A stretch of DNA of 64,000 nucleotides from positions 256,001 through 320,000 of the forward strand of contig OZ253580.1 in NCBI GenBank assembly GCA_965263035.1. The letters run 5' to 3'. A model generated the notes under the pieces. The model was given only the letters and a program-made list of their open reading frames with translations. It had not been told where the DNA came from and did no database searches. Source of the DNA: Acidobacteriota bacterium (lineage in GTDB: Bacteria > Acidobacteriota > UBA6911 > RPQK01 > JAJDTT01). Position numbers and translations under genes: made by a program. This document shows positions 7,592-57,974 of the stretch, piece by piece; position 1 is the stretch's first letter; each line of letters starts with the position of its first letter.

Positions 7592-7815
7592 GGGAGCGGA
7601 GGCTTTCTTGCCGCCGGGGAGCGGCGACTTTCCAGTCGCCGATTAGGGGGAGTTAGGGGGGACGGTTAGTCCCCCCTCTACGCTTACCGGCCCCTACACC
7701 TTCCGACCGCCGAATCGTACAGCATCACAGAAGAGCAGGCGACAAGAAAGTCGCCTGTCCCAGTGGGCGACAAGAAAGTCGCCCCTCCTAGCAGGCGACA
7801 AGAAAGTCGCTCCTG
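7592..7815. repeat. REP cluster between convergent genes
   Basis: Three GGCGACAAGAAAGTCGC units plus GGCGACTTTCCAGTCGCC and GGGGGGACGGTTAGTCCCCCC palindromes. Confidence 0.85.
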
Positions 7816-34850: not shown

Positions 34851-34994
34851 GGAGGGGCGACTTCCAGTCGCCCCTCCTCTGCGCCCCCGTACGTCCATTA
34901 CGCCATGCCCCGTTCGGAGTTCGGCGGATGGAAACCGCCGCTCCCGTCCCTTTTATTCCGCGATTTCGCCGGACCCCGGCTGGTGGGGGAGCTT
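34851..34994 (-). repeat. Composite REP doublet homologous to 4432-4550
   Basis: Reverse complement reads AAGCTCCCCCACCAGCC..GGTCCGGCG..AAAAGGG..GGAGCGGCGGTTTCCATCCGCCGAACTCCG..GGGCGACTGGAAGTCGCCCCTCC. Confidence 0.8.
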
Positions 34995-37480: not shown

Positions 37481-37613
37481 AGGAGTGGCGACTTTCTTGT
37501 CGCCTGCTCCGGACTGTACAGGGGGGACTAATCGTCCCCCCTTGCCCCCCCTGGTCGGCGACAAGAAAGTCGCCGCTCCACCCCCCAATCGGCGGCAAGA
37601 GAGTCGCCGCTCC
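37481..37613. repeat. REP cluster in the trpS/ccsA divergent spacer
   Basis: GGCGACTTTCTTGTCGCC, GGGGGGACTAATCGTCCCCCC, CGGCGACAAGAAAGTCGCCGCTCC, CGGCGGCAAGAGAGTCGCCGCTCC. Confidence 0.85.
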
Positions 37614-53266: not shown

Positions 53267-53378
53267 GGAGCGGCGGTTTCCAACCGCCGATCTCCCAAGT
53301 GATCGAGGGGCGCAAGAATGCAGGGTGGAATGAGCCCGCGGGCCAACGCAGGAATGGGCGATTGGAAATCGCCCCTCC
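53267..53378. repeat. REP doublet (REPIN-like)
   Basis: GGAGCGGCGGTTTCCAACCGCCG...GGAATGGGCGATTGGAAATCGCCCCTCC. Confidence 0.8.
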
Positions 53379-53474: not shown

Positions 53475-55805
53475 GTGCTCCTGGTGGGTGTGGTCCGCCT
53501 CCTGACCGAGGAGCAACAGCGTCCTCGACTCGCCGTTGATCGGAATCAGACCGTCGAGTTGGTGGGCCGGATCGATCACCCGCCTCTCGCGCTGAAGAGG
53601 GGGTTGTATCTGGAGATCACTCCCCTCTCGGTTCGGCAAGCGGGCCGCGATCTTTCCCTTCCCGGCAAGGTGGCTCTCTACGTCTACTCCCTTCCCGGAG
53701 GATCCGAGTCGGAGCCATTCCTCCGCTACGGCGAGAGACTGCGGGTCAGCGCCTTCCTGGAGGACCCGACCCACCACGGAATCCCGGGAGTGGACGACCT
53801 GCGCCTGCGCTTCTGGCATCGGGGAATCGTGGGAGTGGTGCGTCTCAAGTCGCACCTCCAGGTCCGGCGCCTGGGGCCGGATCCGGGATGGGATCCGCGA
53901 AGGCCGCTGTTCGCGTATGTCCGATCGTTCGAGCGCTTCTGCCGGCGGACCCTGAAGCCGGAGCAGGAGAATCTGGTCCTGAGCACCCTTCTGGGTCAGA
54001 CCCGCCGGCTCGAGGAGGTCGATCGCGTCAGCATCGAGAAGCTGGGAATCTTCCACCTCTTCGCCGTGTCCGGATTTCACGTCTCACTGGTCTACCTGTT
54101 TCTCCATCTCCTGTCCCGTCCCCTGGGGTTGGCCGGGCGCCTCCTGGCTCTGGCCGCCGTCTGGAGCTATGTCGTGGCCGTGGGAGCTCCCGTCTCCGCC
54201 ATCCGGGCCGGACTCATGGCCAGTTGGATCCATCTCCTCTTGTCGTTGGGCCTGAAGTCCCAGTTCCTCAACGGTCTCGGTGTGGCCGCCCTGATCACGT
54301 TGGGGTTCCGTCCCCAATCCCTTCATACGGCGAGCTTCCAATTCTCCTATCTGAGCCTCCTGGCCATTGGGCTCTGCGTCTTTCCGGTCCAGCCCTGGAT
54401 CCAGACCCTGCGGCGAACCGCATGCTCGGTTTTTTTGCCTCAAGTCCGGGTCGAGGCGACGACCCCGGGACGACTGGGACGGCGAATCCGATACCGTCTG
54501 GAGCATCTCCTGGAGCCGCTGCCCCGAACCCTGTCCCAATCCCTGGTTCCCGCGTTGAGCCGCGGCTCCGGATCGGTCCTTTCATTGGTCTCGTGCACGC
54601 TCTGCATCCAACTGTTCACGCTGCCTCTGGCCCTCTACTACTCCAACCTCTGGTGCTGGACCCATTGGCTGTCCAATCTGGTCCTGGTTCCCTGCTTCTC
54701 CCTCTTCCTGCTGGCCGCCTTTCTCCTGCTCATCACCTACTGGCTTCCCACCGGAGAGAGTCTCTCCGTGCTGGTGGGGACGGTGGCCGATCTGATCCGT
54801 ATGCTGATGGAACTGGTGCAGTGGATCGCCACCATTCAGTACGTGCCCCACCCCTCGACCGCCGAGCTGATCCTCTACTTCCTGCTTCTGGGACTGGGCC
54901 TGATCCTGGGCCGGAGGGCACTCCACCTCCTCTGGCTGGCGCCGGTGCTCCTCTTCCTGTCCGTCACCTGGGAGTCCGATTCGGCGACCGGACAGCTGGA
55001 GGTCACCCTGCTGGACGTGGGCCAGGGGGAGAGCATCCACATCTCCTATCCCGACGGATCCCACGCACTGGTGGATACCGGGGGCCGCTGGTCGTGGGAT
55101 GCGGAGCCCAGCCGCTTCGTCGGGCAAAGACTGGTGGGACGCTACCTCTGGCACCGGAGAATCCGGAACCTCTCCTACGTCCTCTTGACCCATCCCCATC
55201 AAGACCACGTGCAAGGTTACGAGTTCATCCGGCAGGCCTTCCCGGTGGGACAATTGATGGTTGCGGAACCTCCGGCCGGAGAGCTGCCGGAACAACGGCT
55301 GACCCTGAGCGACGGTCAGGCCTTTTTCCAGGGGGGAGTCGGGCATCGGGTGCTCCATCCACCCGGGAAGGGGGACCCGGTATGGAACTCCGCCGGCGCC
55401 AACAACAGGTCCGTGGTCCTGCTCCTCGTGTACGGGCGCTTCCGCATGCTGTTGACGGGAGACATCGACCGGAACATCGAGGGGAGATTGATCCCCAGGC
55501 TGGGACGGACGGCGGTCCTCAAGGTGGCACACCATGGGAGTGGCTCCAGCAGCTCTTCCCCGTTCCTTTCCCGGCTGCGGCCCCGGGTGGGCCTGATCTC
55601 GGCTGGACGCAAAAACCCCTTCGGTCATCCCTCCCAGGCCGCCCTGCACCGCCTCCGCCGGGCCGGAGCGCTCCCCCTCTCCACCAGCCAATGGGGGAGC
55701 CTGCGCGTGAAGACCGACGGACGAAGCTGGCGGGTCGCCCACTACCGGCGCCAGACCGATAGCTTTTGTCCCATCACCGGAGGATTTGTGGAAGAGGAGA
55801 ATTGA
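53475..55805 (+). CDS. comEC: DNA internalization competence protein ComEC/Rec2 (start uncertain)
   Basis: HLFAVSGFH, SFQFSY, LDVGQGES, THPHQDH, KVAHHGS, FGHP. Confidence 0.94.
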   Translation: MLLVGVVRLLTEEQQRPRLAVDRNQTVELVGRIDHPPLALKRGLYLEITPLSVRQAGRDLSLPGKVALYVYSLPGGSESEPFLRYGERLRVSAFLEDPTHHGIPGVDDLRLRFWHRGIVGVVRLKSHLQVRRLGPDPGWDPRRPLFAYVRSFERFCRRTLKPEQENLVLSTLLGQTRRLEEVDRVSIEKLGIFHLFAVSGFHVSLVYLFLHLLSRPLGLAGRLLALAAVWSYVVAVGAPVSAIRAGLMASWIHLLLSLGLKSQFLNGLGVAALITLGFRPQSLHTASFQFSYLSLLAIGLCVFPVQPWIQTLRRTACSVFLPQVRVEATTPGRLGRRIRYRLEHLLEPLPRTLSQSLVPALSRGSGSVLSLVSCTLCIQLFTLPLALYYSNLWCWTHWLSNLVLVPCFSLFLLAAFLLLITYWLPTGESLSVLVGTVADLIRMLMELVQWIATIQYVPHPSTAELILYFLLLGLGLILGRRALHLLWLAPVLLFLSVTWESDSATGQLEVTLLDVGQGESIHISYPDGSHALVDTGGRWSWDAEPSRFVGQRLVGRYLWHRRIRNLSYVLLTHPHQDHVQGYEFIRQAFPVGQLMVAEPPAGELPEQRLTLSDGQAFFQGGVGHRVLHPPGKGDPVWNSAGANNRSVVLLLVYGRFRMLLTGDIDRNIEGRLIPRLGRTAVLKVAHHGSGSSSSSPFLSRLRPRVGLISAGRKNPFGHPSQAALHRLRRAGALPLSTSQWGSLRVKTDGRSWRVAHYRRQTDSFCPITGGFVEEEN

Positions 55806-55810
55806 GGAGC

Positions 55811-55836
55811 GGAGCGGCGGCTTTCTTGCCGCCGAT
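55811..55836 (-). repeat. REP unit forming the 3' exon of the intron
   Basis: Minus strand ATCGGCGGCAAGAAAGCCGCCGCTCC. Confidence 0.85.
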
Positions 55837-55839
55837 TGG

Positions 55840-56469
55840 ATCGGGTCGAGTGCAGGGGATTGCGCCCCTGCACCCTCCCACACCACCGGACGTACCGTTT
55901 TCAGTATCCGGCGGTTGGAGTCACTCGAGGCTCTTTCGAGCCTCGTAAAGGGCCTTTCTTTCCGGTTTTCGCCGCCGCTGGGACTTGATCTCCGCCCTTC
56001 CGGCTTGACGGGTTCCACCCTTGGGCCTTCCGTGCCGGGTCCGAGGGGCCTCCCCCCGCCCCGTTTCCGGAGGTAGTTGCGATCCCGCTGACGAGTCCAC
56101 CATAGGGCCAGTCCGACTCCTTCGGTCCTTCGCTCCACCGGCATTATCCGGCTTCTTCGCTACTATGACCTCTGCTGACTTCTCAAAGGCTCTCACCCTT
56201 GAGATCTCCCCGAGTAAGGTGCTGCATCTTTCCCCCCGGGCCGCCCGGCTCTACCTGGTACGTCTGGATGGGGTTCGGGTTTCGCTGTTGCTCGCCAGCT
56301 CACCGCCCGCACCCGGCCTCGCTGCCGGTTCGTGTTCCTGCGGTCGTGGGTTTGCCTTCCGCTTCCTTCAGCTTCACCTCGCGGCTACGCCTTGCGGTTC
56401 GGCTAGGGTTGGTCCCATCACCTCCCTTGGGATCTTTCATCCCTTAGATACAGCCCATGTCGGGCGCAC
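55840..56469 (-). mobile_element. ORF-less group IIC intron (630 nt)
   Basis: 5' GTGCGCCCGACATGGG; DI end TACTCGGGGAGATCTC; DIII AAGTCAGCAGAGGTCATAGTAG...GAAGGACCGAA; DV ACCGCCGGATACTGAAAACGGTACGTCCGGTGGT (CGC triad, CG bulge); DVI with bulged A seven nt from the end; 3' ACCCGAT; no RT ORF. Confidence 0.92.
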
Positions 56470-56531
56470 GAGCGGCGGCTTTCTTGCCGCCGATTCGGGG
56501 GGGCAGGGGGGGCTGGAAGCCCCCCCTCTAC
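56470..56531 (-). repeat. REP units forming the 5' exon of the intron
   Basis: Minus strand GTAGAGGGGGGGCTTCCAGCCCCCCC...ATCGGCGGCAAGAAAGCCGCCGCTC immediately before GTGCG. Confidence 0.85.
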
Positions 56532-56597
56532 ACACCCCCCACACACCCTCAAATTCGTATACTAAGGCCTGATCGCGTTCACGAGACCCAAACCGCC

Positions 56598-57974
56598 GTG
56601 TCTCAGAAATCTCTCCTACAAAAAAACCACGCCCCATCCTACGCCACCTCTCGCAGGCTGGTGGACGCAGTCGGTTGTTGGTGCGCGTTAGGCTACGGGG
56701 CCCTCGCCTATCTGGCGCGACAGCCCGGTGAACCGGATCTGTCCATCTTCTTCGTCCTGGCGGCCTGGACCGGACTTCCGGTCTTCGGACTCTACTTCTA
56801 TTTTCGGCGGCGGGGCGAACCGTTTCCGATCGGGCGCATGTTCTTCTGGGCCGTGGTGTTCAGGGTCTTCGGCCTCGTCGGTGGACCCTTTTTCGAGGAC
56901 GACTTCTATCGTTACCTATGGGACGGCTACCGATTCGCCACGGCCGGAACGCCCTACGGCGCGGCGCCGGAGGCGTTCTTTCTGGACACGAACGTTCCGG
57001 CGGCGTTTCAACAATCGCTGGACAACATCAACAACCCCGACCTGCCGACCATCTACGGACCGACGACGCAGCTCCTCTTTCTGCTGGGCTACTGGCTGCA
57101 ACCGGGCAGCGTGACGGCACTGCAGTTGATCCTGATCCTGATCGACCTGGGTATGGTCTGGGTCCTGCTCCGTATGACGCCAGCCCGGAACGTCATGCTC
57201 TACGCGTGGTGTCCACTAGTGGTCAAGGAGATCGCCTTCACGGCCCATCCGGACGGCGCCGGAGCCTGCCTGCTCATGGCGGCGATCCTGCTCGTCCGAA
57301 ACCGGCGCCGGGGAAGCGCCGCCGTCTGCCTGGGGATGGCCGCCGGGGCCAAGATCTTCGCCTTGGTGCTGGCGCCGTTGGTGTTGCTGCGAGCTCGACC
57401 CCGCCACTGGTTGCTGTTCGGCGCTACACTCGCCGGGTTGTATGCTCCATTCGCCCTGATGGGCGGCACGAACCTCACCTCGTTGCAGGTTTTCGCACGG
57501 GAATGGGAGTTCAATTCCGCGGCCTTCGGCTTGCTGGGGACCCTGTTGCCACGGTTCGAGGCCCGGCTGATTCTGGGTCTGATGTTCGCCGTTTTCTGGC
57601 TGCGCCAGGCCGCCAGGTTTGCACGAGGCGGCCAACACGCCATCCCCCGGGGCGATTGGCTCTACGGAGGGTTGCTCGTGGTTTCCCCGGTGATCAATCC
57701 CTGGTATCTCCTCTGGTTGCTCCCGTTCGCGGCCATCTTCCCCAGCGCCTGGGCCTGGACGGCCTCGGGCGCCGTCCTGCTCAGCTACGTGATCGGAATC
57801 CACCTGGATGACTACACCTTGCAGGCCTACCAGCAGCCGACATGGATCCGATTCCTGGAATTCGGTTTGATCTTGCTGGCGCTGGCCGGCGACCTGATCC
57901 GGCGGCGGTCCACAAGCCTGGATGTCGGAACGGACCCCGGGCATAGCGCCCATATGCCATGTACGAGAACCTGA
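56598..57974 (+). CDS. Polytopic membrane glycosyltransferase (GT-C, GT87/DUF2029-like)
   Basis: EDDFYRYLWDG, INNPDLPTIYGP, YAWCPL, WEFNS, PVINPWY; start inferred. Confidence 0.8.
   Translation: MSQKSLLQKNHAPSYATSRRLVDAVGCWCALGYGALAYLARQPGEPDLSIFFVLAAWTGLPVFGLYFYFRRRGEPFPIGRMFFWAVVFRVFGLVGGPFFEDDFYRYLWDGYRFATAGTPYGAAPEAFFLDTNVPAAFQQSLDNINNPDLPTIYGPTTQLLFLLGYWLQPGSVTALQLILILIDLGMVWVLLRMTPARNVMLYAWCPLVVKEIAFTAHPDGAGACLLMAAILLVRNRRRGSAAVCLGMAAGAKIFALVLAPLVLLRARPRHWLLFGATLAGLYAPFALMGGTNLTSLQVFAREWEFNSAAFGLLGTLLPRFEARLILGLMFAVFWLRQAARFARGGQHAIPRGDWLYGGLLVVSPVINPWYLLWLLPFAAIFPSAWAWTASGAVLLSYVIGIHLDDYTLQAYQQPTWIRFLEFGLILLALAGDLIRRRSTSLDVGTDPGHSAHMPCTRT

Follow-up and report, generated by a model that had tools for sequence, protein, structure and literature searches.

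The intron and its locus

We analysed a 64,000-nucleotide (nt) stretch of DNA, hereafter the window, from an Acidobacteriota bacterium (contig OZ253580.1, positions 256,001 to 320,000), whose genome, called G000 here, is a single contig of 6.2 Mb with 62% G+C. The window contains a group II intron antisense to the two genes that flank it, comEC (53475..55805, plus strand; Competence and metallo-beta-lactamase domains, Pfam PF03772 at 3e-35 and PF00753 at 7e-12) and an open reading frame (ORF) for a membrane protein (56586..57974, plus strand; weak GT87 match below cut-off, 20.1 bits versus 25). The intron (55840..56469, minus strand) is 630 nt long, has no ORF, and directly follows the GCTC tail of a DNA hairpin belonging to a family of repetitive extragenic palindromic (REP) sequences (56473..56492, minus strand). 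It is one of 24 copies in the genome and, as we argue below, has very probably spread there by targeting a hairpin followed by GCTC|C (the bar marks the insertion point), a motif supplied mainly by one REP family.

Read on the minus strand, the upstream junction is ...GAATCGGCGGCAAGAAAGCCGCCGCTC followed by GTGCGCCCGACATGG..., and the downstream junction is ...CTCGACCCGAT followed by CCAATCGGCGGCAAGAAAGCCGCCGCTCCGCTCC. The intron itself starts with GUGCGCCCGACAUGG at 56469 and finishes with CUCGACCCGAU at 55840, so that its ends are 5' GUGCG and 3' GAU; they were set by Rfam matches and by the points where the 24 genomic copies cease to align. The Rfam models of group II domains D1-D4 scored 81.4 bits (RF02001) and 47.2 bits (RF01998) on the minus strand, both above cut-off, and the model of domains V and VI (RF00029) scored 39.4 bits in a local scan, slightly below the cut-off of 40 (E = 4e-6). 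Together domains V and VI fold at -47.8 kcal/mol (z = -5.3). The ends, which conform to the GUGYG and AY of the six-domain group IIC fold, the Rfam matches, the fold of domains V and VI and the mode of site recognition described below identify 55840-56469 as a non-autonomous (ORF-less) group IIC intron.

Exon-binding site 1 (EBS1) is GAGC at 56290..56293 (minus strand), nucleotides 3-6 of the 8-nt terminal loop GCGAGCAA (56288-56295) on the D1d stem GCUG/CAGC (56284-56299). It was placed by Rfam alignment and by covariation, and its position is that given in the cryo-electron microscopy (cryo-EM) description of the E.r. IIC ribonucleoprotein, where EBS1 is a four-base stretch of the terminal D1d loop after the delta nucleotide and EBS3 is a single base of the coordination loop (PMC10190682). 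The loop here has the same layout, GC, then GAGC, then AA. The partner of EBS1, intron-binding site 1 (IBS1), is GCTC at 56470..56473 (minus strand), the final four bases of the 5' exon, the first of which is also the final G of the hairpin; it is identical in all 24 copies, is complementary to GAGC and covaries with EBS1 in relatives. IBS3 is the C at 55839 (minus strand), the first base of the 3' exon, and the G in GUAGA of the coordination loop (56251, minus strand) is, by its position, a candidate EBS3 that would pair with it. Near relatives nearly all combine GTAGAG with C as the first 3'-exon base, which is too little variation for covariation; in the sole variant (L035; L numbers denote loci), GTAAAG stands with a 3'-exon G, which either does not fit or reflects a boundary off by one. 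Upstream of the target hairpins the sequence is variable, which argues against a conserved IBS2.

Domain V (55882..55915, minus strand) is 34 nt long in the RF00029 alignment and has CGC where the triad AGC is usual. The fold of domain VI (55842..55880, minus strand) leaves A55846 unpaired; lying 7 nt from the 3' splice site, it is a candidate branch point. Comparison with the 1848-nt copies described below indicates that a domain IV remnant (55926..55945, minus strand), a stem CGAGGCUC/GAGCCUCG capped by GAAA, stands in the place of a missing reverse transcriptase (RT) ORF of about 1.2 kb.

Intron copies and their reverse transcriptase

A BLAST search of G000 gave 24 intron copies: 19 intact ORF-less ones (630-632 nt), two full-length ones (1848 nt) and three broken by insertions. 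Nine of the 19 are at least 99.8% identical to the window copy. The ORF-less copies are far closer to each other (0-5% divergence) than to the RNA of the full-length copies (8-9%), which suggests a recent burst of the non-autonomous form. Both full-length copies carry an identical open frame of 497 codons, whose product (P0001) has the Pfam domains RVT_1 and GIIM only and matches TIGR04416 (group II RT/maturase) at 2e-108; its best relatives of solved structure among the PDB matches are the GsI-IIC RT (5e-134) and the 7uim intron RT (3e-102). It is thus an intron-encoded protein (IEP) of class C, with RT and maturase domains and without a DNA endonuclease domain. The ORF-less copies are presumably able to splice, and would owe their mobility to the RT/maturase that the two full-length copies supply in trans.

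ORF-less derivatives are found in four species, G000, G001, G003 and G008 (lengths across the four species 630, 648, 657 and 650 nt; L006, L007 and L008 compared with window 55926-55960), and their domain IV deletion junctions differ: the G003 derivative retains the first codons of the RT ORF, and the window copy is closed by the GAAA tetraloop. The comparison of full-length with ORF-less copies covered the 5' side of the junction, since the 3'-end pattern matched within the ORF. Because the junctions differ, the ORF either was lost recurrently or was trimmed further after its loss.

The copies are themselves hosts to other elements. One and the same IS-like insertion (IS, insertion sequence) of about 1.8 kb interrupts two ORF-less copies (G000:C1:3067627-3070027 and 3925592-3923178, L003) at different positions and in opposite orientations; it holds a 342-aa ORF, probably an IS transposase. 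The copy at G000:C1:5180457-5185638 (L004) has lost positions 121-264 and contains a 4.5-kb insertion with a 694-aa ORF resembling a large serine recombinase; a weak Bac_DnaA-like match lies within this locus at 5180883-5181170.

Target sites

In each of the 24 copies, a hairpin and, immediately after it, GCTC close the 5' exon; the 3' exon starts with C in 23 of them. In 23 cases the occupied hairpin belongs to REP families: 16 are perfect CGGCGRC-AAGAAA-GYCGCCG (family A) and three are close or imperfect variants of it, two are of the CGGGGG-TTGMAA type, one is GGGGGAC-AAGGAT-GTCCCC and one is a relative with a TGGAAA loop. The remaining copy (G000:C1:436206-436835) lies behind an unrelated hairpin, GGCCATC-AGGTC-GATGGCC, within a plus-strand protein-coding gene, which it interrupts in antisense near the 3' end; once the intron is removed, the frame is open for 365 codons.

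We compared these sites with what the genome offers. Four REP consensus forms, matched with at most two mismatches, gave 321 REP-like hairpins, and the tail of each was taken as its last stem base plus three bases. Introns occupy 22 of the 157 hairpins with a GCTC tail and none of the 164 others (81 with CCTC, 83 with other tails). Nearly all the empty GCTC-tailed REPs (134 of 135) continue with C, as do the occupied sites. In a wider count of perfect hairpins (stem at least 6 bp, loop 3-8) followed by GCTC and then C, 366 sites were found among the 69,646 GCTC tetramers of the genome, and 22 of these were occupied.

Covariation of EBS1 with the exon

For an assessment of the EBS1 assignment beyond this genome, the first 235 nt of the intron were aligned by nhmmer to all fetched loci, including 80 IIC loci of other phyla found via their IEP. 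The 50 non-duplicate IIC intron/exon pairs outside G000 have 23 different tetramers at the EBS1 loop position. Pairing extends over exon positions -1 to -3 in as many as 47 and over all four positions in 26; when exons were shuffled among introns 1000 times, the corresponding means were 12.9 (maximum 22) and 5.6 (maximum 12). The three loci that do not pair are L063, L014 and L015.

The closest relatives vary at a single base. A GAGC loop goes with a GCTC exon end in 24/24 copies of G000, 2/2 of G004 and one in G031, and a GAGG loop with a CCTC exon end in 6/6 copies of G003, one copy of G001 and the one fully assembled copy of G008 (three further exon ends in G008 are GCTC, on contigs that end before the loop and hence cannot be scored). 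In the species with GAGG, the occupied hairpins are REP variants whose closing pair yields the CCTC tail. Thus, among sister species, a one-base change in EBS1 from GAGC to GAGG accompanies a change of target tail and of REP subfamily.

These results bear on an earlier note on the same DNA, made from the letters of the window. The note had placed the hairpin CGGCGGC-AAGAAA-GCCGCCG and CTC at the end of the 5' exon, CCAATCGGCGGCAAGAAAGCC at the start of the 3' exon, and GAGC in the loop on the domain I stem GCTG/CAGC; junctions and coordinates are as it gave them. It had further supposed that the intron acts in the IIC mode, by a short IBS1 and an upstream DNA stem-loop, with the REP hairpin and its GCTC|C tail as a multicopy landing pad, which agrees with the census above (GAGC facing GCTC behind a hairpin in every copy). 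The covariation it predicted, GAGC/GCTC versus GAGG/CCTC, was seen between G000, G004 and G031 on the one side and G003, G001 and G008 on the other, and its placement of EBS1 is upheld by the same loop position in IIC introns of other phyla.

Strand bias and choice of REP subfamily

The gene dnaA, at 2,872,067, coincides with the minimum of the cumulative GC skew, which puts the replication origin near 2.87 Mb. The sense strand of the intron is on the lagging-strand template at 19 of 22 occupied GCTC-tailed REPs versus 52-55 of 135 empty ones (Fisher p ~4e-5; the range depends on where the terminus is placed); for all 24 copies the number is 20 or 21 under the same assumptions. Introns without an endonuclease are known to be primed at replication forks; the bias agrees with such priming, which the intron would use as well, and with the lagging-strand preference reported for class C introns (PMC8919778, PMC10190682).

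Occupancy also differs between subfamilies. At intergenic sites, family A (AAGAAA loop) is occupied in 13 of 29 cases in the lagging-template orientation versus 3 of 46 in the leading one. The TTGGAA-loop subfamily (family D; CGGCGGTTGGAAACCGCCG-CTCC, about 70 perfect copies) is occupied at 1 of 57 intergenic sites, and at 1 of 29 in the lagging orientation (Fisher p = 4e-5 versus family A); the window has one of its empty members (53267..53290, minus strand, boundary 53267). All 57 other intergenic sites with a hairpin, GCTC and C are empty, 25 of them in the lagging orientation. We considered a second upstream hairpin (GGGGAC..GTCCCC) as a co-determinant and rejected it, as it had no clear effect: the intron is present at 10 of the 20 family-A sites in the lagging orientation that have this hairpin and at 3 of the 10 that lack it.

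These counts bear on the question whether REPs are targets in their own right. If any hairpin followed by GCTC were accepted, REPs could dominate merely as the most numerous sites at which selection tolerates an insertion. Recognition by IIC introns is known to rest on shape and a short IBS1 (PMC10190682, PMC1702495), four different REP subfamilies are used in G000, and one copy sits, in antisense, behind an unrelated hairpin inside a gene. Availability and neutrality alone, however, do not yield the gap seen at intergenic sites of the favoured orientation (13/29 for family A, 1/29 for the TTGGAA-loop subfamily, 0/25 for other hairpins), and we consider such generic specificity unlikely as the explanation.

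The repeats belong to a REP system

The repeats have the hallmarks of REPs, being short palindromes in high copy number that are mostly extragenic: the 321 hairpins, in four related consensus forms plus the TTGGAA-loop subfamily, lie outside genes in 300 cases as judged by a crude gene caller based on ORFs and on G+C content at third codon positions (GC3). They form tandem arrays (for example 37556-37612) and inverted doublets, and are rarest between divergent genes by the same crude calls. Five sister genomes each have 24-74 matches to a single REP pattern; they include G007, in which neither BLAST with the intron nor a pattern search for the EBS1 loop gave a match; the repeats therefore exist independently of the intron.

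As in other REPs, one end of the hairpin carries a conserved tag, here GGAG, read as CTCC on the strand of the hairpin; in 92 of 100 strict-core copies, CTC precedes a C or the intron. The described REP superfamilies bear a GTAG or CGTC tag (PMC3733652), and GGAG is absent from the text of that paper. IBS1 and IBS3 of the intron overlap the tag.

The genome has two matches to PF01797 (IS200-like Y1 transposase), at 3.478 Mb and 2.483 Mb. Inverted REP doublets stand on either side of the 3.478-Mb gene, as is typical of a REP-associated tyrosine transposase (RAYT). This gene contains an in-frame TAG. The 2.483-Mb match is intact and has family-A REPs at a distance of 0.7-1.6 kb. Presumably, going by work on E. 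coli TnpA-REP, the GGAG tag serves the RAYT here as GTAG does elsewhere.

Some further features of the repeats were noted. In the RAYT-like gene at 3.478 Mb (G000:C1:3477780-3478440; L124:1150-1830), the TAG is the single one in frame (...RIEDWLD*GSGSCILKDP...) and an HUH-like NHVHVL motif lies downstream of it; the gene is either a pseudogene or a case of read-through. Upstream of many family-A REPs (window 56500-56545 and numerous 5' flanks) lies a second module, GTAGAGTGGGGACTCCGTCCCCCC-TG-CCCCCC, which makes the repeats composite units like bacterial interspersed mosaic elements (BIMEs) or REP doublets forming hairpins (REPINs). G001 has long tandem arrays of GGGGAC-type REPs, each of 4-6 copies that recur every 36-78 nt and end in CCTC or GCTC tails (L121; G001:C1:297625-297879, 2816182-2816383 and 4880247-4880727).

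Class C introns have been reported behind terminators with and without U-tails (PMC8919778). It is therefore conceivable that the hairpins are T-less, 'I-shaped' transcription terminators of this organism, in which case the REP label would add nothing; their extragenic position (300/321, crude caller) and their rarity between divergent genes would agree with this. The tail, however, is CTCC without a T-run, with C following at 134 of 135 empty sites, and the orientation of the repeats is not terminator-like, because only about half of them follow a co-oriented gene (11 of 22 occupied and 64 of 135 empty GCTC sites). The hairpins also fall into sequence families whose members number from dozens to more than 100, occur in tandem arrays and inverted doublets and flank a RAYT-like gene, and the 57 other intergenic hairpins with GCTC and C are all empty. 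Ordinary terminator targeting thus appears quite improbable.

Empty sites in the window and in sister species

The 3' exon of the window copy itself contains a second REP (55811..55834, minus strand; hairpin 55815-55834, GCTC 55812-55815, C 55811), an unoccupied target found by core matches and a site check. Folded as single-stranded DNA, the hairpins of the 5' and 3' exons reach -11.4 and -9.9 kcal/mol (z = -3.4 and -2.7). The 20-nt REP core has five matches in the window with at most two mismatches and none in 100 dinucleotide shuffles. Elsewhere in the window, core matches and site checks gave an uninterrupted tandem pair of hairpins, each followed by CTCC, with a period of 34 nt (37556..37612, plus strand), and site checks gave two adjoining sites (7593..7640, minus strand), of which the one with its boundary at 7618 has a perfect stem and the one at 7593 an imperfect stem, as well as a REP-like site with its boundary at 34943 (34920..34943, plus strand). 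With the TTGGAA-loop site at 53267, these are the six empty sites that the earlier note had listed, and all of them exist: 7618 (minus), 34943 (plus), 37578 (plus) and 53267 (minus) are perfect hairpins followed by GCTC|C, and 7593 (minus) and 37612 (plus) have one or two stem mismatches.

A search for the 3' end of comEC succeeded in every one of the eight sister genomes. The comEC spacer of G007 (94% identical) has one REP, flanks as in the window and no intron, and that of G006 (94%) has a tandem pair of REPs, likewise without an intron, whose junction reads GCCGCCGCTC|C. These orthologous empty sites show the GCTC|C junction without the intron, and thus the insertion point is exact and there is no target duplication. 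The idea that removal of the intron restores a tandem REP array holds for G006; for G007, from which the window differs by the intron and one additional 28-nt REP unit, it does not, so that the array is not necessarily the ancestral state.

The near identity of the two REPs flanking the window copy, together with the single REP of G007, could mean that the upstream REP is part of the mobile unit, co-mobilised with or created by the intron, rather than a pre-existing target, all the more as in vitro IIC introns are able to place the 5' splice site at an alternative hairpin/IBS1 motif upstream (PMC1702495). This is very improbable: the 5' flanks comprise at least five hairpin types with differing upstream sequence, at least 135 GCTC-tailed REPs are empty, REP families abound in G007, in which the intron searches gave no match, and a REP lies on the 3' side of only 5 of 24 copies. 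That the intron is cargo moved between REPs at the DNA level by a RAYT transposase is scarcely credible, even with two Y1 transposase genes, one of them flanked by REPs, given the exact junctions GCTC|GUGCG and GAU|C in 24 copies, the covariation of EBS1 with the exon end, the absence of a downstream REP from most copies, and a lagging-template bias and an intact IIC RT that fit retromobility.

Candidate joints and depth signals in sequence runs

Assembled contigs of four sequence runs, the RNA libraries X15 and X16 and the others X11 and X14, were also searched for joints. An RNA-library contig joining 55834 to 56470 has 31 extra letters between them and only 24 letters on its shorter side, and probably comes from another REP array or organism. 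In X11, a contig that starts in comEC and crosses the REP continues with ATA and the start of another REP, and ends after 22 letters. Neither contig can serve as evidence of an empty-site allele or of splicing. The intron's word depth far exceeds that of the flanks in the RNA libraries, but it is equally high in X11 and X14 and hence reflects copy number; it is not taken as a sign of expression.

Discussion

What was observed here, namely the intron's anatomy, the counts of sites, the covariation of EBS1, the bias in strand and the orthologous sites without an intron, fits the following course of events. The RT/maturase of the full-length copies would, most likely, mobilise the ORF-less RNA in trans, and copies would spread by reverse splicing into single-stranded DNA. 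The site recognised would be a DNA hairpin, immediately followed by GCTC and then C, where GCTC would pair with GAGC in the terminal D1d loop and the C, possibly, with the G at the EBS3 position. A REP family with the tail CTCC (GGAG on the other strand) would serve as a multicopy, mostly harmless landing pad, with insertion strongly favoured where the hairpin is on the lagging-strand template. A change of EBS1 from GAGC to GAGG would retarget the intron from GCTC to CCTC tails and thus to another REP subfamily.

Several points weigh against spread by REP targeting as we describe it. The TTGGAA-loop REPs share the GCCGCTC|C end and are almost unused all the same, so that hairpin and tail are not a full account of site choice; it is possible that the IEP reads loop or stem geometry, or that this subfamily expanded later. 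The covariation within the genus concerns one nucleotide position and may reflect a single event. The nearest relative at the locus, G007, has one REP, not two; a duplication may have preceded the insertion, or the unit may have moved with the intron. Family A has a weaker link to RAYTs, being near the intact gene, whereas families B and C are directly beside the other RAYT-like gene. The gene positions behind the extragenic and orientation counts are rough, as they come from the crude ORF/GC3 caller. Being antisense to both flanking genes, the window copy may be a silent one, and the assembled contigs of the four runs yielded neither an exon-exon joint nor an empty-site joint that could be relied on.

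The mechanism is the established one of IIC introns, which use a DNA stem-loop and an IBS1 of 3-4 bp, have no endonuclease and make use of lagging strands (PMC1702495, PMC10190682, PMC4424553, PMC8919778). B.h.I1 of Bacillus halodurans, GsI-IIC of Geobacillus stearothermophilus and the E.r. intron belong to the same ribozyme class and IEP clade as the intron described here. With these terminator-targeting introns it shares the lack of an endonuclease domain, the reading of a stem-loop and a 3-4 bp IBS1 by the terminal D1d loop, a single-base IBS3 and the lagging-strand bias. It differs from them in that the hairpin is a REP without a T-run, half of the sites are antisense to the upstream gene, and the copies that proliferated are ORF-less; moreover, the E.r. 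target has a short spacer (PMC10190682), whereas here the GC-rich IBS1, GCTC, abuts the stem or overlaps it by one base, with no spacer. The nearest IEP relatives outside the genus (about 62-68% identity; metagenome-assembled genomes of Acidobacteriota, Bryobacterales and Verrucomicrobiota) also have GC-rich hairpins abutting IBS1 without a T-run, and more distant ones (Alicyclobacillus, Burkholderia and related genera) have classical terminators of hairpin and T-run.

Specialisation of a IIC lineage on the repeated, structured recombination sites of another element is known from the IIC-attC introns, such as S.ma.I2 (PMC4424553). Their attC sites, however, are imperfect, bulged hairpins tied to integron integrases, and the sites here are short perfect palindromes tied to Y1 (RAYT-like) transposases. 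The insertion sequences ISPpu9, ISPpu10, ISPa11 and IS1397 are mobile elements that insert at REPs as well, but such elements are mostly DNA transposons, unlike the retroelement described here. In thermophilic cyanobacteria, the Lambowitz laboratory has described the proliferation of ORF-less group II introns in trans (PMC2936281). There, as would be the case here, non-autonomous introns multiply with the RT of other copies. We take the cyanobacterial introns to differ in that they are not IIC and rely on long EBS/IBS pairings instead of a hairpin.

The target specificities listed for bacterial group II introns in a review are homing sites, terminators and attC sites (PMC4424553), to which another paper adds 'or other inverted repeats' among IIC targets (PMC1702495). 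A table by Tobes and Pareja (2006) has the row 'Group II intron 2/9' for REP-associated elements of Pseudomonas putida KT2440 (PMC1525189). This row is a bare count, without mechanism, EBS/IBS or strand analysis, whereas in G000 all but one of the 24 copies are associated with REPs and covariation demonstrates the pairing. Apart from this row, we found no description of REP targeting by IIC introns in the literature searched, whose coverage was incomplete. The novelty of REPs as the main target class of an otherwise established mode is modest; what is new is a target class made up of REP/RAYT repeats with the GGAG tag, a subfamily nearly saturated in one orientation, retargeting by a single base between sister species and the unexplained preference among subfamilies.

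A bolder view, possible but rather doubtful at present, is that the intron lineage has specialised as a hyperparasite of the REP/RAYT system and evolves in step with it: EBS1 and EBS3 would read the very tag (GCTC|C, or G|GAG on the other strand), one-base switches would carry the intron from one REP subfamily to another, and 13 of 29 favoured family-A sites are already filled. If this were true, an intron that splits the tag from the hairpin may disable REPs for their own transposase, so that two selfish elements compete, and diversification of REPs, such as the almost unused TTGGAA-loop subfamily, could be an escape.

In practical terms, REP arrays in genomes of this kind hide many ORF-less introns that protein-based annotation pipelines miss. 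The sister species that differ by one EBS1 base and the matching tail base constitute a natural experiment, and the 366 candidate sites of G000, of known strand and subfamily, a system for measuring the saturation of defined sites by a retroelement. The preference for family A points to a determinant of DNA recognition by IIC introns beyond stem and IBS1. For the IIC family as a whole, REP/RAYT repeats would be a fourth target class beside homing sites, terminators and attC sites, reached by the same mechanism of hairpin and IBS1.

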